Shown here one piece after another: positions 21,382 to 48,833 of a stretch of DNA of 64,000 nucleotides (its first letter is position 1; every line of letters starts with the position of its first letter). The notes under the pieces are model-generated. The model was not told the origin of the DNA, searched no databases, and saw nothing but the letters and a program-made list of their open reading frames with translations. This stretch comes from Chloroherpetonaceae bacterium. Its GTDB lineage: Bacteria > Bacteroidota > Chlorobiia > Chlorobiales > Thermochlorobacteraceae. A program made the position numbers and the translations under genes. The stretch spans positions 17,646 to 81,645 of the forward strand of contig JBDNCJ010000002.1 of assembly GCA_046719715.1 (NCBI GenBank), written 5' to 3'.

Positions 21382-23241
21382 ATGTTTTTTCGCCTTGCCT
21401 TTTTCGCGCTTTTCCTGCCTGCTCTTTGCAAAGCACAAACGCTTTCTAACACCTCGTTTGAACGCTTTCTAAACACTTATTTTTGGAAGGGTAATTATTT
21501 TTCCTCTCATCAACTCGGCGTTTGGACGCTTACGGCGAATAACAATTTTCAATCCACCCTTATCAATCTCAGCGAGCGAGCCTTGCGCGATGAAAACGAG
21601 TTTAGTTTTATTCTCTCCCGACCCTTCTATGCACGGTCTCAACTTCATTTAGAAGGCTCAAATTATTTTCTTTCCGATAATCGCAGTTTATTTCGTAACA
21701 GTGCGGTTTCTAATCGCGTCGCACTCGGCGTTTCTTCACGTCCTTCCGATTGGTCTGTTCTCGAAGCCAACGGCGGATTTAAAGCCGAGCGACAGGTCAA
21801 TCAGTTCAACTCAGGATTCATTTACGCACTTCGGGGAGAGTTACTCGGCTATCAATTTTCTAATTTTGAACTCTCCTCACGCGTGAATCTTTCACAAGAG
21901 TTTTTAGAGCCGCGCAGAAATAAAGATAAAGGCATTATTCTCTCTCTCAATCAAAAATATAATCGTGCGGAACTGCTCCTTTCAGGCGGCATGAGCGAGG
22001 AGCGGCGGGATTATTTTTCAAATGTTCTGGCTTCACAAGAGCCGACGACCGTCGTAGAACGGCGAATAGAGCAAAATTTTTATACGATTGACAGCCTTTC
22101 GTATCGAACTTTTTCCAACCTGACCACGCGGGCAAAAGTAGAACTTCGCAGGCGAGTGATTATTCGCGAAAATAGTCAACAGTTTTCCGACCTAACCAAT
22201 GCCGTTTATGACAATGAAATCGAGCAACTTCGCCTCTTTACCGACGCGGGCGTTATGTTTGAATCCTCATCGTTTCAAACGTTTGCAGGCGTTTTATTTC
22301 AGCAACAATCTGAAAGTTATCGTCCGATAAATGCGTTCTCTGGAAATCCAATCGCGATTACTAGGGAGCAGTTTCGCAATAATTCTTTTCAAGTCGCGAC
22401 GCTTTATTTGTCGTCAATTTGGAGGCACTTCAATGCTGTTGGAGATACCGTGCATTATTTTTTTGTTTCCGCACAGATGCGCGGATTTCGCTACGATACG
22501 CCCGACACCACGAACACCGACGACCGCGACGAAGTCAGTTACGCGCTTACGATTTCCGATAGCCTTCGCCTCAATCGTTATTTTGGATTGCGTCTTGTTG
22601 GTTCGTTTGCAACAACGAACAATGTTTTTATTTCCCGCGAGCGGAGCGCAAATAACACCAAGAACTATATTTTGAGATTTTCGCCGACGACGGTCTGGCG
22701 CGTCCCGAAAAAAATTGAGAGCGTCAATGAATTCGGCGTGCTGGCGAACTATACGGTTTATGATTTTGAAATCGGCTCGCAAACTCGAAGTTTTTCATTC
22801 CGACAATTTTCGTTTTTAGATTCTACGCAATTCTTTTTGAATGAAACCATTACTCTGAAATTTCTCTACGAACAGCGTCTTTACGAGCGCGGCGAGCTTT
22901 TTTGGAACAACTTTGCCGAGCGCCCACTCAGCCGATTCAACGACCGCTCTCTATCGTTTGAAATAGAGGCTCGATATGCGTCGCTTGTGAGTTCTTTTGG
23001 AATTAGAATTTTCGCGCGCAGTCAATCAAATTTTCAAACCCGTCCCAAAACTGATGAGGTTGAAATCATTGAATTACCGCTACCGAACTTGCTTTATATT
23101 GGTCCGACGGCGCGACTTTCATACCGCCCGTCGCAATCCGTTGAATTTGAAACAAGCGGCTGGTATCAGGTTGAACGATTGGGAAGCCAAACCGTTCAAA
23201 TTTTTCCGAACTTTCACCTTTCAGTCAAAGCCCTTTTTTGA
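21382..23241 (+). CDS. Hypothetical outer-membrane beta-barrel protein
   Basis: Signal peptide, aromatic-rich beta-strands, C-terminal Phe. Confidence 0.65.
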   Translation: MFFRLAFFALFLPALCKAQTLSNTSFERFLNTYFWKGNYFSSHQLGVWTLTANNNFQSTLINLSERALRDENEFSFILSRPFYARSQLHLEGSNYFLSDNRSLFRNSAVSNRVALGVSSRPSDWSVLEANGGFKAERQVNQFNSGFIYALRGELLGYQFSNFELSSRVNLSQEFLEPRRNKDKGIILSLNQKYNRAELLLSGGMSEERRDYFSNVLASQEPTTVVERRIEQNFYTIDSLSYRTFSNLTTRAKVELRRRVIIRENSQQFSDLTNAVYDNEIEQLRLFTDAGVMFESSSFQTFAGVLFQQQSESYRPINAFSGNPIAITREQFRNNSFQVATLYLSSIWRHFNAVGDTVHYFFVSAQMRGFRYDTPDTTNTDDRDEVSYALTISDSLRLNRYFGLRLVGSFATTNNVFISRERSANNTKNYILRFSPTTVWRVPKKIESVNEFGVLANYTVYDFEIGSQTRSFSFRQFSFLDSTQFFLNETITLKFLYEQRLYERGELFWNNFAERPLSRFNDRSLSFEIEARYASLVSSFGIRIFARSQSNFQTRPKTDEVEIIELPLPNLLYIGPTARLSYRPSQSVEFETSGWYQVERLGSQTVQIFPNFHLSVKALF

Positions 23242-24131
23242 TGAAAACTGACAAACTTATTTACAGCATTTTTCAGGAGTCGCCAGAAACGGCATTAGCA
23301 TTACTTGGCTACGACGAGGCACTTTCATCGCATTATACCTTCCAATCGATTGAGGTCAAAGAAAAGTCTTATCGAATTGATGGCGTACTTTTGCCTGATT
23401 CGCCCGACCTGCCGGTCATTATTTTGGAAGTTCAATTTCAGGCAGACGACTTTATTTACGAGCGCATTCTTTCGGAGACTCTGATTTTCAGAGCACAGAA
23501 TCGGCAGCTGCCGCAAACGCAAATGGTCGTGATGTTTGCTTCGCGCAGTCTGGATAAAGGTGCAGGCATGTTTGAGCCGCTCGTTTCATCGGGCGCAATT
23601 CGTCCGATTTACCTCAATGAAGTCCTGAACGACGAAATGCGCAATCTTGGACAGATGTTGCTTCAACTGACGGTAAAAAGGTCCAGTCTTTCTGCCGACC
23701 TTGAAATCGCAAAAGCATTCAAACAGCTTTTGGATAAGCCTGAAATGACTCAAACCCGCAGACGCTTTTTCTTGAACCTATTAATTAACTTATTTTTGGA
23801 AAAGCACGAACCTTTAACCTATCAGGAGCTGGAAACGATGATTGAAATGGAAGAAATTTTTGACTTCTCGAACAACCGTCTCGTGCACGACATTGCACGC
23901 CACACGATTGCGCCTGAAATTGCCAAAGAGATGGCAAAGGATATCGCAAGGGATATGGCAAAGGATATCGCAAGGGATATGGCAAAGGATATCGCAAAGG
24001 ATATGGCAATTGCGATTGCACTTGAAAGCAAGTTGGCAGAAATTCCAGCCCTCCGCCGATTTGGTTTAACGAATGAGCAGATTGCAGAGGCTTTGAAACT
24101 TCCTCTCGAAGACGTTCAGCGCGTTCAATGA
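23238..24131 (+). CDS. Rpn family (DUF2887, PD-(D/E)XK) nuclease
   Basis: MKTDKLIY...F.SIEVKE..YRIDG...LEVQFQ.D..IY.R motif; 4-aa repeat tract and HTH-like tail. Confidence 0.85.
   Translation: MMKTDKLIYSIFQESPETALALLGYDEALSSHYTFQSIEVKEKSYRIDGVLLPDSPDLPVIILEVQFQADDFIYERILSETLIFRAQNRQLPQTQMVVMFASRSLDKGAGMFEPLVSSGAIRPIYLNEVLNDEMRNLGQMLLQLTVKRSSLSADLEIAKAFKQLLDKPEMTQTRRRFFLNLLINLFLEKHEPLTYQELETMIEMEEIFDFSNNRLVHDIARHTIAPEIAKEMAKDIARDMAKDIARDMAKDIAKDMAIAIALESKLAEIPALRRFGLTNEQIAEALKLPLEDVQRVQ
23916..24011 (+). repeat. In-frame 12-nt tandem repeat (GATAT(C/G)GCAA(A/G)G), about 8 units
   Basis: Encodes EIAK/EMAK/DIAR/DMAK units in the Rpn C-terminal region. Confidence 0.9.
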
Positions 24132-40788: not shown

Positions 40789-40865
40789 TTTTTGTTCAGG
40801 CGTTTCAACTTAACCGTTTAAACCGATTTCAAGGTCAAGACGGTGGGTTTACAGACGTCGGTTCG

Positions 40866-40873
40866 TAACTTTG
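40866..40873 (+). promoter_or_regulatory. Putative -7 promoter element
   Basis: TAACTTTG 35 nt upstream of ATG 40909. Confidence 0.45.
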
Positions 40874-40908
40874 CACGATTCTTTTCAAGTTTAATTCCGA
40901 AGTTATCT

Positions 40909-43632
40909 ATGCGCGCTCTTCAAAAAACACTGCTCTGCTCGCTCTTCATTTTCTCTGCTGCTCCGCTCTTTGCCCAAGTTGATTTTCGTGAAGAAACCAT
41001 CTATTTCCTTTTGACCGCTCGATTCAACGACGGTGACTCGACGAATAATCGTCCGACCGAGTGGTGCTCATACCCTCGTCCGCAAATTACCGACCCACGC
41101 GACGTCACTTGGCGCGGCGACTTCAAAGGCTTGGTTCAGAAGTTGGACTACATCAAAGATTTAGGCTTCACGGCTATTTGGATTACGCCGATTGTTCAGA
41201 ACCGAAGTCCGCTCGATTATCACGGCTATCACGCTTGGGATTTCAATGTCGTCGACCCGCGTTTGGAATCACCGGGCTACACCTTTCAAACCCTCATTGA
41301 CTCCGCTCACGCCAAAGGCATTAAAGTGATTTTAGACGTGGTGCTTAATCACGCGGGACGCTTTGGAATTAAACATCGTGCGGAAATCAAATACAACACC
41401 GACCCGACCAAGCCTTGGGGACAAGACCGCTTCGGCAACCCGCTTCAACCGAATCCGAATTGGCAATACGACGGCATGACGCCGAATCCCGACGACGATA
41501 AAATTTGGTCGCGCGCCAATCTTGCGCCGATGCCGCCGCCCTACAATCAAAACCTTGCCGCATTTAACTTTCCAAGCAAAGAAAATTACGTCGATACCAG
41601 CGACCCGAATTGGTATCATCATTCAGGCAACGGCTTTGCACAAGGCTACGACGATACCGTCAATCTCTACTACCGCGCCCTTGCAGGCGACACACCCGAC
41701 CTCAACACCGAGAGCGATACGGTTCGACAATATCTCGTTAATGCTTACAATCGCTTCATCGATATGGGAATCGATGGCATGCGCCTCGACGCCGTCAAGC
41801 ACATCAGCAAGGGAAGTTTGATTTACTTCATTGACCAATTCAAAGCCCGCAATCCGAACTTGTTCATTTTCGGCGAAGTGGCGCAAAAGCGGCATGAGTT
41901 GCATCAAGTTCAAGAAATCAATCCGCACTGGTATACTTGGCGCGGAGCCGTTGGCGCATCGCCGTCGTCGCGCATGTCCGTTTTGGATTTTTATGCGATG
42001 GCAACCTTTCATCTTTTCGAGCGCGGCGAATCCATTTCAGGCGTAACGGCGGCGGCGCGCTACGACCACCTTTACTCGAACCCCTCCGAACTCGTTACCT
42101 TCTTGGATAATCACGACTTCGGACCGAATAATGATTGGAATCGTCGATTCGGAAACACGCCGCAAAATCTCGCCGCGTGCATGAATTTCATGTTCACTTG
42201 GCGCGGTATTCCGTGCGTGTATTACGGAACGGAAATGCAGTTCAAACGTGGGGCTTTCGCCGATATTCAAAGCGCAAGCGACATTGAACGCTCGATTGAT
42301 AACACCGGACGCGCTTACTATGGCGACGTGATGCATCAAGCCCCGTCGCACCCTGTTTATCAGCACCTTAAAAAACTCAACGCGATTCGTCGCGCTGTGC
42401 CCGCGTTGCAAAAAGGCTCGTGGCAATGGGGCGGGAATCCTGGTCCGAACGGTGTCGGCTACATTCGACGCTTCGGCACAAGCGAAGTCGTTGTTGGCTT
42501 GGCGAAAGATGGAAACGCAACATTCAATTTCACTGGCGTAACCAATGGCGTTTATCGCGACGCGGTAACGGGCGCGGAAGTTACCGTAACCAACGGCACG
42601 CTTTCGTTTACAGTCGCACCCAGTTCGGCAGGCATTTATGTCTTGAATGGACCGGGACTCATCGGCGCGTTGGGTGCGGGATACTTTCAGACTTCCGCGA
42701 ATCCCGGAAGTGGTGGCGGCGGCAGTGGTGCAAGCATTGTTACTTTCAATCCGAACCCCGCACAAGCCGGCGCCCCACTCATGATTACTTATCAAGGCTT
42801 TTTGAGTTCGCAATCACAAGTCAATCTCTATTGGGGCATTGATAATTGGCAGAACATTACCACAACGCCAATGACACGGCTCAACGATTCGACTTGGCGC
42901 GTTACCGTAACCGTGCCTTCAACGGCACAACAACGCTTCGTTTGTGTCTTCAATAACGGTCAGGGACTTTGGGATAACAACAACAGCGCAGATTATCAAG
43001 TCAGCGTAACGGGCGGCTCGTCAGGAGGTAATGGCATCACCGTTTATTTCAAACCGCCAAACACTTGGAGTGGCACACCGCGCCTTTACTTTTATGAAAC
43101 TTCTCCAAGCGTGCCCGAGCCCACTTGGGATACATCACCAACTATGACCGCTCACGGCAATGGATGGTTCAGACACACGATTGCTAGCGTCAATAGCGTG
43201 CGCGTCATTTTCCGCGACAATGGCTCAAATCAAATTCCTGCCTCGATGCAACCCGGCTTTTTGAGAACGCGCGACGGCTGGTTCGACGGCACAACGCAAA
43301 TCTGGTCGGATAATCCGCCGCTCTCTTTCCAAGAGCCTTCAAAGCCACAAGACTTTTCGCTTTTGCAGAACTATCCAAATCCATTTAATCCAACAACAGT
43401 TATCACTTACACCTTGCCAACACCCAGCGCCGTTACGCTGACACTCTTTGATGTGCTTGGCAGAACCGTCGCCACGCTTGTTGACGTCAAACAATACGCA
43501 GGCATACACCATTACAACTTGAATACCTCTCTCTACAACCTATCAAGCGGCGTTTATTTCTACCGTTTGCAGGCAAGCGGCGCGAATGGACAATCGTTTG
43601 TTGAAACCAAGAAGATGTTGCTGACAAAGTAG
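40909..43632 (+). CDS. Secreted GH13 alpha-amylase with starch-binding modules and T9SS-type C-terminal domain
   Basis: DVVLNH, GMRLDAVKH, GEV, FLDNHD catalytic regions; WDNN and YFKPP..W CBM-like modules; QNYPNPFNP...GVYFYRL...KKMLL tail. Confidence 0.9.
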   Translation: MRALQKTLLCSLFIFSAAPLFAQVDFREETIYFLLTARFNDGDSTNNRPTEWCSYPRPQITDPRDVTWRGDFKGLVQKLDYIKDLGFTAIWITPIVQNRSPLDYHGYHAWDFNVVDPRLESPGYTFQTLIDSAHAKGIKVILDVVLNHAGRFGIKHRAEIKYNTDPTKPWGQDRFGNPLQPNPNWQYDGMTPNPDDDKIWSRANLAPMPPPYNQNLAAFNFPSKENYVDTSDPNWYHHSGNGFAQGYDDTVNLYYRALAGDTPDLNTESDTVRQYLVNAYNRFIDMGIDGMRLDAVKHISKGSLIYFIDQFKARNPNLFIFGEVAQKRHELHQVQEINPHWYTWRGAVGASPSSRMSVLDFYAMATFHLFERGESISGVTAAARYDHLYSNPSELVTFLDNHDFGPNNDWNRRFGNTPQNLAACMNFMFTWRGIPCVYYGTEMQFKRGAFADIQSASDIERSIDNTGRAYYGDVMHQAPSHPVYQHLKKLNAIRRAVPALQKGSWQWGGNPGPNGVGYIRRFGTSEVVVGLAKDGNATFNFTGVTNGVYRDAVTGAEVTVTNGTLSFTVAPSSAGIYVLNGPGLIGALGAGYFQTSANPGSGGGGSGASIVTFNPNPAQAGAPLMITYQGFLSSQSQVNLYWGIDNWQNITTTPMTRLNDSTWRVTVTVPSTAQQRFVCVFNNGQGLWDNNNSADYQVSVTGGSSGGNGITVYFKPPNTWSGTPRLYFYETSPSVPEPTWDTSPTMTAHGNGWFRHTIASVNSVRVIFRDNGSNQIPASMQPGFLRTRDGWFDGTTQIWSDNPPLSFQEPSKPQDFSLLQNYPNPFNPTTVITYTLPTPSAVTLTLFDVLGRTVATLVDVKQYAGIHHYNLNTSLYNLSSGVYFYRLQASGANGQSFVETKKMLLTK

Positions 43633-43869: not shown

Positions 43870-45201
43870 TTAAGTGTCGAAGAAACGCTTTATTTTTTCA
43901 AACGAGGGCTGTTTTCTGATGAGCGATTGAATTAAATCGAGCATCACGTTTGCGCCTTGTGCAAAGTAAATCGGACGCGACGAAATGATGTTGGTGTAAT
44001 AGACGGCGGGAATGCCGAGTTCTTTGACGTAACTATCCAGCGAAGTTGTGCCGACGACCAAGTTGGGTTTGTATTTCAGGACGGCGCGGCGGTCTTCTTC
44101 GAGATATTTGCGATAGCGCAGTTCTGTGCCGAGCATCGTGAGCAGGTTGTGGTCGTCGTCGCCCAGTTGGGTATGTGCAATTGACGTTGAGGCATATGGC
44201 ACATTAAGCCCTGCCTCTAAAAGCAATCGAACGAGCGGAAACTCGTTGCCTTCGTAGCCCGCCACAATCACCGTTCCCTTCATTTTCTTAGCATCGATGA
44301 CGGCTTTAATTTTTGTTTTCTCTTCTTGGGCAACTTGCTCGACCGTTTTTTCATCAAGCCCTAAGGCGTCGCCAATTTGTTTAATCCATCTGTAAGTAGA
44401 ATTCACGCCGACCGGATTTCCCGCCACGACTTTCACGCCGCGCTCGCGATAAAAATGCTCGACGCGCTCATAAAACGGATGAAGCACCACCGCGACGCCC
44501 ACATTTCCGGCTTCTTTGTAATCGTCTAACTCTTGCGAGGGCAAGGTCAAGACGGATTCGACGCCGATTCGCTCTAAGACTTGTCCAATCATCATGGCGT
44601 CAAGCGGAAAAATTTCGCCGATAATCGCGACGGATTTTTTGCGCGTTTCGCTTGGGATTTGAGCGAAGCGTTTAAGCAAGGCTTCAACGGCGATGTCTTT
44701 GGCTTCGGGGTGCGATTTGATGAGATAAGCCGGAATGCGCACCAGCACGACTTCGGCGTTTCCGACTTTCTTGGGCAAAAGTTCTTCAGCAATTCCAGCA
44801 GTCTCGGCAACGCACAGACTCACAACGGGAATCAGTCGAATGGCTTTATCTTTGGCAATTTCTTCGAGCGTGTGGCGAATGTCGTGAATCATGGTGCCGC
44901 TTGAAAGTTGTTGCGACATCAGTTCAGGAGAGACGATAGATTTTTTTGCGGCGTAAAAATGCGTTACGAAGGTTAAGCCATACATACAGCCTTTGTCGGT
45001 TGCCATGCAGACTTGTGCGCCGTCAATGCGCGTAATGACCCGCAATCCACCGAAGGCAGGGCACATGGTTTGTGGGTGCAGATTCAGCTCTTCTTCCTTT
45101 TCGCCTTTATGTTGCTCGTGAAGGATGTTGAAGAGGTGATTAAAATCGTTGCTCCCGTCACTTTGAGGCACAGTCGGATTCGGTGTTGATGTGGTGTTCA
45201 T
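43870..45201 (-). CDS. bchY: Chlorophyllide a reductase subunit Y
   Basis: HPQTMCPAFGGLRV, GCMYGLTFVTHFYAAKKS, LCVAETAG, GYEGNE, YYTNIISSRP. Confidence 0.9.
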   Translation of the reverse strand: MNTTSTPNPTVPQSDGSNDFNHLFNILHEQHKGEKEEELNLHPQTMCPAFGGLRVITRIDGAQVCMATDKGCMYGLTFVTHFYAAKKSIVSPELMSQQLSSGTMIHDIRHTLEEIAKDKAIRLIPVVSLCVAETAGIAEELLPKKVGNAEVVLVRIPAYLIKSHPEAKDIAVEALLKRFAQIPSETRKKSVAIIGEIFPLDAMMIGQVLERIGVESVLTLPSQELDDYKEAGNVGVAVVLHPFYERVEHFYRERGVKVVAGNPVGVNSTYRWIKQIGDALGLDEKTVEQVAQEEKTKIKAVIDAKKMKGTVIVAGYEGNEFPLVRLLLEAGLNVPYASTSIAHTQLGDDDHNLLTMLGTELRYRKYLEEDRRAVLKYKPNLVVGTTSLDSYVKELGIPAVYYTNIISSRPIYFAQGANVMLDLIQSLIRKQPSFEKIKRFFDT

Positions 45202-45266
45202 TTTTCACTCCGTTTAGGTTCTGCTTGCATGATGCAAAAAGTTTATCGGAGCGGCAAATCATATCG

Positions 45267-45605
45267 TCAGTAGAGCAGATGTTTTTTTGATGCCTCTCGC
45301 CAGCGTGCTTGGCTTTCGTATTTGACGAAATGAATTTTCAAATCGGCTTGGCTCGGATAGTCCACAAAGAAAATTTTCACCTGCGCTTGACTTTCATACT
45401 TGGTGAAAAACCATAGCCCCTCGTTGCCTCTCGCTTGACTTTCATATTTGACTTTGAAGACGAGGAGGTCGGCTTGACTGGGGTAGTCGACCACGAAGAC
45501 TTTGACGTCGGCTTGGCTGGGATAGTTGCACGAGAAAACTTTTTGTGCCGACACGCTTTGCGTAAGTAGTAGCAAGCCAATCAAGATGAGGAAAGTTTTT
45601 ATCAT
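45267..45605 (-). CDS. Small exported repeat protein (DUF6150-like)
   Basis: Signal peptide; repeated (V)DY(P/E)SQAD(V/L)K(V/I)F units. Confidence 0.7.
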   Translation of the reverse strand: MIKTFLILIGLLLLTQSVSAQKVFSCNYPSQADVKVFVVDYPSQADLLVFKVKYESQARGNEGLWFFTKYESQAQVKIFFVDYPSQADLKIHFVKYESQARWREASKKHLLY

Positions 45606-45626
45606 CGTCGTTTTTGTTCAACACGG

Positions 45627-46421
45627 TTATGTTCTTGACACGCTTTGCACATTCGCCAGTGGGAGTTGAAGTTTCTCGGCGATTTGCTCATCGCTTAACC
45701 CCAACTCTCTCAAAATCGGCACTGCTGCAAGTTTGCCTTTTTGCTCACCCTTTTGCTCGCCTTCCAGCCTGCCTTTTTGCTCGCCTTCCAGCCTACCTTC
45801 TGCTTTGCCTTTGGCAAAGACTTCCTTGTAAAACGGCGTGTCCTTCAATAACGCTTCCTCTATTTCCAACATCGCTTTCACCTCCGCTTCGGTTAGGTTC
45901 TTGTAGGCTAAAATGTTCAAGAGTAATTCCATCTGAACCTTGTCGGCTCTCGCCGCAATCTTCCGCGCCAATGCTCCTAGCTCTTTCTTCGGCACAATCA
46001 ACATCTCTAACAAACTCACCGCAACTGACTCCATCGGCGGCAACTCGTCCAAATATATCCGTTTGACTTGCTTCAATGCAAGCAAGTCTCGGTATCCCTC
46101 AAGGTCTTTTTGTTCCGCACTCCGCGAAGAATAAATCACGACAGCGTTCCACTGACGCGTCGGATATTGTTTGAGATAAAGAAAAATTTCAGCGAAGAAT
46201 CGCGCGTAGAATTGTTCGTCGCGTTGAAATTGCGCTTCCACAAAGTATGTCGTGTCGTCGCTGTCAGGAATGAAAAGTCCATCAATGCGAAACGCAACTT
46301 CTTTGAGCTCAACCGATTTGAATGTGTAGTGCAACGCGTCGTCGGGAGTCCTGCCAATGAGCGCGAAAAAACCTTGCGGAAAATGCTGCAAAATCAGGTA
46401 TATCAACTTGTCAGTGTGCAT
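45627..46421 (-). CDS. Rpn family (DUF2887) nuclease, tandem copy C
   Basis: MHTDKLIY, FKSVELKE..FRIDG, FVEAQFQRD..FY.RFFAE, EGEQKG repeats, HTH-like tail. Confidence 0.88.
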   Translation of the reverse strand: MHTDKLIYLILQHFPQGFFALIGRTPDDALHYTFKSVELKEVAFRIDGLFIPDSDDTTYFVEAQFQRDEQFYARFFAEIFLYLKQYPTRQWNAVVIYSSRSAEQKDLEGYRDLLALKQVKRIYLDELPPMESVAVSLLEMLIVPKKELGALARKIAARADKVQMELLLNILAYKNLTEAEVKAMLEIEEALLKDTPFYKEVFAKGKAEGRLEGEQKGRLEGEQKGEQKGKLAAVPILRELGLSDEQIAEKLQLPLANVQSVSRT

Positions 46422-46436
46422 ATCTGCTCGGCAGGC

Positions 46437-47243
46437 TTACCCCTTCGGCACGCTTTGCACATTCGCCAGTGGGAGTTGAAGTTTCTCGGCGATTTGCTCA
46501 TCGCTTAACCCCAACTCTCTCAAAATCGGCACTGCTGCAAGTTTGCCTTTTTGCTCGCCTTCTTGTCTGCCTTTTTGCTCACCTTCTTGTCTGCCTTTTT
46601 GCTCGCCTTCTTGCTTACCTTCTGCTTTGCCTTTGGCAAAGACTTCCTTGTAAAACGGCGTGTCCTTCAATAACGCTTCCTCTATTTCCAACATCGCTTT
46701 CACCTCCGCTTCGGTTAGGTTCTTGTAGGCTAAAATGTTCAAGAGTAATTCCATCTGAACCTTGTCGGCTCTCGCCGCAATCTTCCGCGCCAATGCTCCT
46801 AGCTCTTTCTTCGGCACAATCAACATCTCTAACAAACTCACCGCAACTGACTCCATCGGCGGCAACTCGTCCAAATATATCCGTTTGACTTGCTTCAATG
46901 CAAGCAAGTCTCGGTATCCCTCAAGGTCTTTTTGTTCCGCACTCCGCGAAGAATAAATCACGACAGCGTTCCACTGACGCGTCGGATATTGTTTGAGATA
47001 AAGAAAAATTTCAGCGAAGAATCGCGCGTAGAATTGTTCGTCGCGTTGAAATTGCGCTTCCACAAAGTATGTCGTGTCGTCGCTGTCAGGAATGAAAAGT
47101 CCATCAATGCGAAACGCAACTTCTTTGAGCTCAACCGATTTGAATGTGTAGTGCAACGCGTCGTCGGGAGTCCTGCCAATGAGCGCGAAAAAACCTTGCG
47201 GAAAATGCTGCAAAATCAGGTATATCAACTTGTCAGTGTGCAT
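46437..47243 (-). CDS. Rpn family (DUF2887) nuclease, tandem copy B
   Basis: Body identical in protein sequence to copy C, tail identical to copy A. Confidence 0.88.
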   Translation of the reverse strand: MHTDKLIYLILQHFPQGFFALIGRTPDDALHYTFKSVELKEVAFRIDGLFIPDSDDTTYFVEAQFQRDEQFYARFFAEIFLYLKQYPTRQWNAVVIYSSRSAEQKDLEGYRDLLALKQVKRIYLDELPPMESVAVSLLEMLIVPKKELGALARKIAARADKVQMELLLNILAYKNLTEAEVKAMLEIEEALLKDTPFYKEVFAKGKAEGKQEGEQKGRQEGEQKGRQEGEQKGKLAAVPILRELGLSDEQIAEKLQLPLANVQSVPKG

Positions 47244-47258
47244 ATCTGCTCGGCAGGC

Positions 47259-48053
47259 TTACCCCTTCGGCACGCTTTGCACATTCGCCAGTGGGAGTTG
47301 AAGTTTCTCGGCGATTTGCTCATCGCTTAACCCCAACTCTCTCAAAATCGGCACTGCTGCAAGTTTGCCTTTTTGCTCGCCTTCTTGTCTGCCTTTTTGC
47401 TCACCTTCTTGTCTGCCTTTTTGCTCGCCTTTCTGCTCGCCTTTGGCAAAGACTTCCTTGTAGAACGGCGTATCCTTCAACAGTTCTTCTTCAATCCCTA
47501 ACATCGCTTTTACCTCCGCTTCGGTTATGTTCTTGTAGGCTAAAATGTTCAAGAGTAATTCCATCTGAACCTTGTCGGCTCTCGCCGCAATCTTCCGCGC
47601 CAATGCGCCTACCTCTTCCTTCGGCACAATCAAGATCTGAAACAACGCCACCGCAACGGAATCCGTCGGCGGCAACTCGTCCAAATATATCCGTTTCACT
47701 TGCTCCAATGCAAGAAATTCCCGATAGGCTTCAATATCCCGTTGCTCCACACTTCGCGAGGGATATATCACCACCGCTTTCCATTTGCGCGTCGGATACT
47801 GTTTGAGATAAAGAAAAATTTCAGCAAAAAATCGCGCGTAAAATTGCTCATCGCGTTGAAACTGAACTTCCACGAAGTAAGTGACGTCGTCGGTGTCGGG
47901 AATGAAAAGCCCGTCAATGCGGAAAGAGACATCTTTGAGTTCAACCGATTTGAATTGGTAGCGCACGGCATCGTTGGGATTTCTGCCAATCAGCAAAAAG
48001 AACGCCTGCGGCAAGAGTTGCAGGAGCAGATAAATGAGTTTATCGGTGTGCAT
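47259..48053 (-). CDS. Rpn family (DUF2887) nuclease, tandem copy A
   Basis: Same motifs with a diverged nuclease body. Confidence 0.88.
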   Translation of the reverse strand: MHTDKLIYLLLQLLPQAFFLLIGRNPNDAVRYQFKSVELKDVSFRIDGLFIPDTDDVTYFVEVQFQRDEQFYARFFAEIFLYLKQYPTRKWKAVVIYPSRSVEQRDIEAYREFLALEQVKRIYLDELPPTDSVAVALFQILIVPKEEVGALARKIAARADKVQMELLLNILAYKNITEAEVKAMLGIEEELLKDTPFYKEVFAKGEQKGEQKGRQEGEQKGRQEGEQKGKLAAVPILRELGLSDEQIAEKLQLPLANVQSVPKG

Positions 48054-48077
48054 TGCATTGCCGGACTTAGCGATTTG

Positions 48078-48833
48078 TTACAACCTTACTTCGATTCCGT
48101 GATGTTCAAGATAGCGTTTGGCTTCGATAATGCTGTATTGGCGATAGTGAAAGATGGACGCGGCAAGTGCGGCATCGGCGGCGCCTTCGGTGAAGGCGTC
48201 TTTGAGATGCGTTAAATTTCCCGCGCCGCCAGAGGCGATGACGGGAACGGAAACCGACGTAGAAATCAGTCGGAGGCTTTCCAAGTCGTAGCCGGATTGT
48301 GTGCCGTCTTTATCCATGCTGGTGAGCAGAATTTCGCCTGCGCCGAGCTCGACGACTTTTTGTGCCCATTCAAGCGCGTCCAATTCTGTTGGCATTTTGC
48401 CGGAATGCGTAAAGACTTTGTAGCGATTGCCCACGCGCTTGATGTCAATGGCGACGACGATGGCTTGCACGCCGAAGCGTTCAGCGAGTTGAGTAATGAG
48501 GGTTGGCGTTTGGACGGCAGCCGTGTTGAGCGAGACTTTGTCGGCGCCATGCAGAAACGCTTGTCGTGCATCGTCCAACGTGCGGATTCCGCCTCCGACC
48601 GTGAGCGGAATGAAGACTTCTTCGGAGACTTTTTGGACTTCTTCGAGCGTGGTTCGGCGCGATTCAATTGAAGCGGAGATGTCGAGAAAGACGAGTTCGT
48701 CGGCGAGTTCGGCGTTGTAGAATCGGGCTTGTTCCAAAATAGAGCCTGCATCTTTAAGGGATTCAAAATTGACGCCTTTCACGACGCGCCCGTCTTTGAC
48801 GTCGAGGCAAGGAATAATGCGTTTGGCGAGCAT
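48078..48833 (-). CDS. hisF: Imidazole glycerol phosphate synthase cyclase subunit
   Basis: [42 protein letters not shown]. Confidence 0.97.

Follow-up and report, generated by a model that had tools for sequence, protein, structure and literature searches.

A stretch of 64,000 nucleotides from the genome of a Chloroherpetonaceae bacterium (GCA_046719715.1, contig JBDNCJ010000002.1, positions 17,646 to 81,645 of the forward strand; in what follows, the window) carries on its minus strand, at 45627-48053, three head-to-tail rpn genes, identified by open reading frame (ORF) calls and read in the order C, B, A. Each of these copies is probably a gene-within-gene toxin-antitoxin unit of the RpnL/RpnS type, in which a full-length frame (L) would encode a nuclease and an internal, in-frame start would yield a small protein (S). 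The feature that carries this reading is a Shine–Dalgarno sequence (SD) followed by an ATG in the interior of the gene, and comparison of homologues reveals that this pair is conserved at the level of the nucleotides, and not only of the amino acids, across the clade of genes that share the DUF2887 nuclease domain. The organization itself is known: it has been published for Escherichia coli, where it takes part in phage defence (Zhong 2023, PMC10400941; commentary PMC10400984). For the present locus we infer by homology that S is made, that it binds L, that L is toxic and that the pair acts against phages.

The genes, the nested ORFs and the signals that precede them are placed as follows.

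47259-48053, minus strand: rpn copy C, full-length frame (L), first gene of the array; 264 residues; DUF2887 E 5.2e-55; TIGR01784 95.5 bits.
46437-47243, minus strand: rpn copy B, full-length frame (L), an A/C hybrid; 268 residues; recognized by ORF, Pfam and TIGR01784.
45627-46421, minus strand: rpn copy A, full-length frame (L), last gene of the array; 264 residues; recognized by ORF, Pfam and TIGR01784.
47259-47504, minus strand: nested in-frame ORF S of copy C, from Met184; 81 residues.
46437-46694, minus strand: nested in-frame ORF S of copy B; 85 residues.
45627-45872, minus strand: nested in-frame ORF S of copy A; 81 residues.
47512-47517, minus strand: SD-like GGAGGT ahead of the S start in copy C; matches the complement of the 16S rRNA tail over 6 bases.
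46700-46707, minus strand: SD-like GGAGGTGA at the S start of copy B; 8-base match.
45878-45885, minus strand: SD-like GGAGGTGA at the S start of copy A; 8-base match.

Codon 184 is an in-frame ATG in A, B and C, directly preceded in each by GCGGAGGT(G/A)AAAGCG, as had been claimed in the original prediction, made from the letters of the window; the coordinates and the lengths of the three nested ORFs (81, 85 and 81 residues) proved to be exactly those that it gave. The 15 bases located 5′ of this ATG read GCGGAGGTGAAAGCG in A and B, and GCGGAGGTAAAAGCG in C. The 3′ tail of the 16S rRNA of the same genome reads ...GGATCACCTCCTTTCT, and it is against this tail that the announced "near-perfect" SD could be gauged: GGAGGTGA, in A and B, is a perfect complement over eight bases, 5 nt away from the ATG, and GGAGGT, in copy C, is a complement over six. 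In copy A, the RNA that surrounds the S start is no more structured than its shuffled versions (z +0.96).

How exceptional such a match may be was evaluated on 2,336 long, non-overlapping ORFs of the genome, taking the first start codon of each as its start (a heuristic that makes some of the starts wrong) and accepting a match 3-12 nt ahead of the codon. Among the 14,719 internal in-frame ATGs of this set, an eight-base match to the anti-SD is found twice, and these two sites are those of copies A and B. Matches of at least six bases precede 35 internal ATGs (0.24%), seven of which lie inside Rpn paralogues; the corresponding proportion at first starts is 2.7%, an eleven-fold enrichment, so that the SD signal must be under selection for some genes of this organism. 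It is a minority of genes: an SD-like match is present at 8.7% of the first starts of long ORFs, and 91% have no SD. This bears on a further claim of the original prediction, that the full-length starts of the three genes have no obvious SD. The observation stands, with a match length of 0 in A, B and C, but it does not set these genes apart, as most genes of the genome begin in the same manner.

The three copies of the window are recent duplicates, and a test of selection has therefore to rest on their relatives. One genome per species was scanned, which gave 582 relatives in 597 candidate stretches, the best 80 of which were used. Within Chlorobiales, 24 distinct full-length genes could be compared. 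The fourth codon before the internal start (codon -4) is GAG in 23 of them and GAC in the remaining one, and codon -5, whether GAG, AAG or GCG, ends in G in all 24. Elsewhere in the same genes GAG accounts for 38% of the glutamate codons, and the two conserved glutamate columns that come after the Met are spelled GAA in 23 of 24 and in 18 of 22 cases; in the genome of the window, overall codon use stands at 27% for GAG and 27% for AAG. The pattern extends well outside the order. Among 62 non-Chlorobiales loci, mostly cyanobacterial, 61 were parsed (L090 was left out), and every one of these 61 has ATG in the start column, an SD core at -16 to -7 and a codon -5 that ends in G; codon -4 is GAG in 52 and GAA in nine, in genes where GAG makes up only 22% of the glutamate codons found elsewhere.

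A maximum-likelihood tree of 95 distinct full-length genes from Chlorobiales and cyanobacteria allowed us to count parsimony steps at each of these positions. Because membership of this set required Met at 0 and E, D or Q at -4, the count bears on the third positions of codons and not on the Met column. At codon -5 the residue varies among E, K, Q, A and R, with 12 steps at the first position, and yet the third position shows no step at all. The third position of codon -4 changes eight times, and the remaining third positions between -10 and +9 take 17-30 steps each, the start codon excepted, which the selection of the set had fixed as ATG. The Met184 column is conserved to at least 90% in a protein alignment of 25 homologues which had not been selected in this way. 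Particular interest attaches to the genes that lost this Met. Two Chlorobiales homologues (L068 and L069) have CTG in the Met column and an ATG two codons upstream, located after GGAGGGA; a broken paralogue in the genome of the window (G000 C57:64406-64945), which contains an in-frame stop and has Leu/Ile in the Met column, displays the same shifted ATG and the same GGAGGGA. It is as if the start had moved together with its SD.

The same module is also found outside of any longer frame. In the genome of the window, an S-sized ORF lies 3 nt after the stop codon of a full-length copy (C43:15726-15950), and its first possible start is the homologous ATG. At another locus (L066) an L gene is followed by two S genes, and each duplicated unit opens with TAA/TGA CACGAGAGGAGGTCAGAGCG ATG. 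The duplicated unit thus includes the SD, which implies that the internal signal has now become an ordinary intergenic ribosome-binding site. This arrangement, read from the sequences, would be hard to explain unless SD and ATG act as a start. Free-standing S genes placed beside L genes have been described in E. coli, under the name RpnSs (Zhong et al., PMC10400941). There is none within the array of the window itself, and further matches restricted to S (L137-L140, L022, L026) were discarded as full-length genes truncated at contig ends.

Compared with this, the start of the long frame looks weak. Of 74 homologues, 69 lack an SD at the L start, and all 74 have, at the S start, an ATG together with an SD match of at least 4 nt. 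Among 60 non-Chlorobiales homologues (L075-L136), the L start codon is GTG in 39, TTG in 10 and ATG in 11; in most of 13 examples inspected, in-frame stops are present a few codons upstream of the L start. Weak starts look characteristic of the toxin frame throughout the family. The asymmetry may fit a hard-wired excess of S, where weak translation of the toxin would be coupled to strong translation of the antitoxin.

The membership of the three proteins in the Rpn family is well supported. TIGR01784, the NCBIfam model of this family, gives 88.7, 91.8 and 95.5 bits for the three copies, for a cutoff of 52.1, and the match spans positions 2-272 of a profile of 273. Pfam DUF2887 (PF11103) covers residues 3-185 in all three, with E about 1e-54. 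In the databases, their nearest proteins bear the label Rpn family and belong to assemblies of Chloroherpetonaceae and Chlorobiales; those of cyanobacteria are next. In two family alignments D4, E62, Q64 and R74 are invariant and D47 is conserved to at least 90%; by their order and spacing, rather than by direct alignment, they would correspond to D11, D63, E82, Q84 and R94 of RpnA, the mutation of which was reported to alter or to abolish in vivo phenotypes (PMC5350276). A model of the full-length protein has no match at E<=0.001 in a Foldseek search, and its best, weak fold matches are PD-(D/E)XK nucleases, with a top E of 0.022.

The nested protein opens with MLEIEEALLKDTPFYKEVFAKG, continues with four-residue units of the form xxxG, which begin at S residue 23, and proceeds with KLAAVPILRELGLSDEQIAEKLQLPLANVQ. 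The number of units, as had been anticipated, differs between the copies, and amounts to six, seven and six in A, B and C, respectively.

47367-47438, minus strand: repeat units of copy C, six units of 12 nt: EQKG EQKG RQEG EQKG RQEG EQKG; Tandem Repeats Finder (TRF) 47366-47444.
46545-46628, minus strand: repeat units of copy B, seven units: KAEG KQEG EQKG RQEG EQKG RQEG EQKG; TRF 46543-46634.
45735-45806, minus strand: repeat units of copy A, six units: KAEG RLEG EQKG RLEG EQKG EQKG; TRF 45747-45800.

Other paralogues contain from none to about 13 four-residue units (KLEG, LQQG, KEGI, etc.). An AlphaFold model of S from copy A, built with 48 aligned S sequences, reaches a mean predicted local distance difference test score (pLDDT) of 87, and folds as a short helix, a long one (residues 13-49) where the repeats are located, and three further short helices. 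The structures nearest to it are those of DNA-binding domains, TrpR and DeoR for example, and the tail of S has weak helix-turn-helix matches (Sigma70_r4_2, E 0.05; Xre-like antitoxin helix-turn-helix, E 0.1). In four cyanobacterial homologues (P0095, P0097, P0100 and P0103) a DUF4351 domain follows the same Met and the same repeats. This suggests that the family makes use of two alternative S tails behind a common module of start and repeats, the tail being seemingly exchangeable. At two further loci, L107 and L131, the Met and the repeats are likewise followed by a tail of the DUF4351 type instead of the helix-turn-helix-like one.

We can compare this system, feature by feature, with that of E. 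coli. Just as in RpnA-E and in the plasmid-borne RpnP2, an N-terminal PD-(D/E)XK nuclease with a D...D...ExQ...R pattern comes first; an in-frame internal SD and ATG then precede a small helical C-terminal domain; repeats of four residues, variable in number, occupy the first long helix of S; some copies are followed by extra S genes; arrays are formed by direct duplication; and genomes hold many copies, with a patchy distribution among close relatives. That the locus is an array of RpnL/RpnS-type units, as the original prediction proposed, is accordingly supported on four sides, the family, the nucleotide-level conservation of the start, the free-standing S genes and the repeats, by way of homology.

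If this is right, the following scenario can be put forward. Translation of the full frame would produce L, a PD-(D/E)XK nuclease of about 30 kDa acting as a DNA endonuclease. Ribosomes would also initiate at the SD and ATG of codon 184, and would produce, in excess, S of about 9 kDa, in which a short helix is followed by a long one bearing the repeats and then by a small bundle of helix-turn-helix type. Through the repeat helix, S would attach to the C-terminal part of the L of its own gene, the sequence of which is the same as that of S, and would keep the nuclease from acting; L, once released, would damage DNA and abort phage infection. In E. coli RpnC, the addition of one repeat to a single partner was reported to abolish neutralization (PMC10400941). 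By analogy, the A and B pairs, which differ by one repeat, would not be interchangeable.

A series of observations must be set against this picture. The nuclease domain belongs to a Pfam family other than that of the E. coli proteins: PF04754 has no match in A, B or C, and a Pfam scan at E<=0.01 returns PF11103 only. Unlike the E. coli RpnS, where the repeats are reported to start at residues 8-20 (PMC10400941), those of the window start just outside this range, and the S proteins are longer, with 81-85 residues and a tail that is not DUF4351, the domain given for RpnS genes that stand alone (PF14261 finds no match in the three S proteins at E up to 10). As for structure, a Foldseek search with the S model gives nothing at E<=0.001, and E. 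coli RpnA-S (7th0) ranks 37 in its list; RpnA-S does come out as the top structural match of the model, a weak one, tied with others, which aligns to S residues 32-77 only. A family-profile search of PDB sequences did not find RpnA-S or other Rpn entries, its best hit, at E 8.9e-4, being a designed helical repeat. The surroundings are not those of a defence island, the neighbours being housekeeping genes (lon, hisF, a BchN-like gene), and PADLOC gives no match for L, S, the neighbouring DUF6150 gene and the fourth window paralogue described below. A promoter scan of the array, limited to sigma-70-like sites, found three sites where 2.5 were expected, all on the plus strand and none on the minus strand, which is that of the genes. 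For 45200-48300 of the window, a look-up of RNA runs gave none. Contigs assembled from short reads, in three runs of one study, are interrupted within the array, and none spans it; A and B have in common about 640 identical bases, and the copy number consequently rests on the assembly. The last point is of a more general nature. The organism is of the Chlorobiales type and rarely uses the SD. In the class Chlorobia most messenger RNAs are reported to be SD-less, and in Bacteroidia the anti-SD is described as occluded (PMC9976891). With a class mostly SD-less and only 8.7% of first starts SD-like, a strong SD may drive initiation less well than it does in E. coli.

Among other explanations, the one that survives best, unlikely as it is, accepts that S is made from the internal start, and makes it something different from an antitoxin: a partner needed by L, or a DNA-binding regulator of the locus. 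The weak helix-turn-helix matches of the tail and the DNA-binding neighbours of the model would agree with such a role, and inhibition by S is, after all, an analogy. There is also a precedent. In the Synechocystis type I-D system, Cas11d is, in the account given in PMC10400941, a small protein translated from an in-frame start inside cas10d and required for the function of the complex; as a required subunit it differs from an inhibitor, and both proteins are unrelated to Rpn. Against this, each of the four E. coli RpnS proteins tested inhibits its RpnL (PMC10400941). Hypervariable repeats common to L and S are what would be expected of an inhibitor matched for specificity, and extra free-standing copies of S fit the buffering of a toxin.

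It could also be, and we find this distinctly improbable, that GGAG and ATG serve another purpose and that no small protein accumulates, the motif being a site where ribosomes pause at a domain boundary, or an element, in RNA or DNA, for the recombination of the repeat cassette. The motif does coincide with the point, at residue 185, where the DUF2887 domain ends and the C-terminal module takes over, and the duplication units of the free-standing S genes open at this very motif. Should the ribosomes of the class Chlorobia read SDs poorly, as they may (PMC9976891), a role in initiation would lose some of its appeal. However, the ATG is kept at a fixed spacing and moves with the SD where the Met column is lost; moreover, in the free-standing S genes the motif is intergenic, before the first start, where a ribosome-binding role is the only one possible. 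The pausing of ribosomes induced by SD sequences is, besides, a contested matter.

A different idea, to which we give very little credence, concerns the way the ratio between S and L might be set. The S start is one of the few sites of the genome with an extended complement to the anti-SD. The longest such complement before any start of the genome is AAAGGAGGTGA, followed by 7 nt and a TTG, ahead of rpsU, which codes for bS21 (PF01165 Ribosomal_S21, E 2.9e-15; L147:70-100, on contig C13, outside the window), and the S starts of A and B have in common with it the 3′-extended GGAGGTGA part. An extended SD was reported for rpsU in all the Chlorobia surveyed, with an autoregulatory rationale, and many aquatic phages are said in the same article to encode bS21 paralogues (McNutt et al. 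2023, PMC9976891). One might imagine that synthesis of S, and hence the S:L ratio, could depend on ribosomes with a free anti-SD, as has been put forward for the autoregulation of rpsU in Bacteroidota, and that ribosomes altered by infection would make less S and so free the nuclease. Yet, unlike that of rpsU, which is an ordinary gene start, the SDs of the Rpn genes are internal to a gene, and they are equally conserved in cyanobacterial homologues, which points to an ancestral feature of the family and weighs against the idea.

Finally, that the motif would simply follow from shared ancestry and from the constraint acting on the protein at a helix cap, (E/K)E(I/V)xxM, with no function at the RNA level, as the high conservation of E at -4 and of M at 0 and the origin of the three window copies in what amounts to one event might have led one to believe, is hardly credible when the codons chosen oppose the preference of the genome, when codon -5 keeps G as its third base across five different residues, and when the glutamates after the Met are written GAA.

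Coming back to the units of the RpnL/RpnS type which we favour, their alignment at the DNA level tells how the array may have been formed. Copies C and A are 81% identical, and the three copies are separated by identical 15-nt spacers. A and B are the same over about 640 nt, which begin 15 nt ahead of the L start and extend to the repeat region; B and C are the same from the repeat region through the stop codon and the 15-nt spacer. With the 5′ part of A and the 3′ part of C, B is what a single unequal crossover between C and A should yield. Unequal crossing-over, with an exchange in the repeats or just before them, would have made both the array and copy B. This hybrid pattern agrees with Zhong et al., for whom rpn arrays come about by tandem direct duplication (PMC10400941). 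An origin by transposition was considered and rejected: identical spacers join the copies, and B is a clean hybrid of A and C. We also considered that copy B could be a loop created by the assembly. Its KQEG unit is present in neither A nor C, and contigs of runs X1 and X3 (the source sample may be among these runs) cover the corresponding stretch with no mismatch. The contigs of the three runs cover the flanks and pieces of the array with no insertion, deletion or joint reported; they are uninformative about variation in the number of repeats.

The array is located between hisF, 24 nt upstream, and a gene of the DUF6150 family, 21 nt downstream, all on the same strand. In five congeneric genomes, the 1.5 kb that come after hisF contain no rpn gene. 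In one of these genomes (L145, 2254-2290) only 33 nt separate hisF from the DUF6150 gene, and this represents the empty site that corresponds to 45606-48077 of the window; different genes follow hisF in the other four. The DUF6150 gene (45267-45605, minus strand, E 2e-24) has a signal-peptide-like start and repeated YPSQAD/YESQA motifs, and it comprises a 39-nt tandem repeat at 45468-45542. Further away, an ORF of 929 residues (40843-43632, plus strand) is alpha-amylase-like, and its C-terminal segment resembles those of type IX secretion, from a reading of the sequence.

A further member of the family is present in the window.

23241-24131, plus strand: fourth, divergent Rpn/DUF2887 paralogue; 296 residues; DUF2887 E 2.8e-40.

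It has four-residue repeats of its own (AKDI/ARDM), and CAGGAGCTGGAAACG precedes an in-frame ATG, with GGAG and ATG in the equivalent place. DUF2887 is matched from end to end in this paralogue and in the three copies of the array, with E from 1e-40 to 1e-55. Its start overlaps the final base of an upstream ORF of 619 residues. At the scale of the genome (3.3 Mb) there are 33 matches to copy A, with at least 16 intact full-length ORFs among the loci read. Congeneric genomes have 9-21 matches each, and at least one match is present in eight of the 11 genomes of the family; in the largest sister family, represented by 25 genomes, copy A as a query finds no rpn match in any. Seven contig ends of the assembly that contains the window fall inside Rpn paralogues (C68, C107, C41, C6, C51, C12 and C120). 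Rpn genes evidently interrupt this assembly, made from short reads, and the true number of copies probably exceeds that counted here.

What is new in all this has to be measured against the literature. DUF2887 was listed as a PD-(D/E)XK family of unknown function, mainly cyanobacterial, in the part consulted of the 2012 survey of this superfamily (Steczkiewicz et al. 2012, PMC3424549), which has neither a function nor a nested gene for it; NCBI now labels such proteins Rpn family. The articles found to name DUF2887, as far as their accessible text goes, do not mention a conserved internal start. In the literature published since 2023 on recombination-promoting nucleases and their antitoxins, the mechanism appears, judging from titles and the openings of abstracts, only in the paper of Zhong et al. 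and its commentary. The main text of that paper does not name DUF2887, and its supplements in text form do not contain Chlorobi, Chloroherpeton, Nostoc, Cyanobacteria or PF11103, though other datasets of the same work may list such genomes. The mechanism itself is already known; the host lineage is new for it. Three features, as we read them in the sequences, were not met in the literature searched: the synonymous sites frozen at the S start in the DUF2887 branch, the asymmetry between the L and S starts, and the natural repeat variant formed by A and B.

The consequence would be to extend the reach of a design, so far known from E. coli and from one gene of C. difficile, to Chlorobiales and cyanobacteria, in the branch of the family that has DUF2887. 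Frozen synonymous sites are a kind of evidence that needs no experiments in uncultured organisms. If our reading is true, the annotation of these genomes misses one small protein for each rpn gene. Copies A and B, with the same nuclease domain and one repeat apart, make up a natural experiment that bears on the rule according to which the number of repeats sets specificity. And strong SDs, kept by organisms that rarely use them, would provide a handle on the way the ratio of toxin to antitoxin is set.

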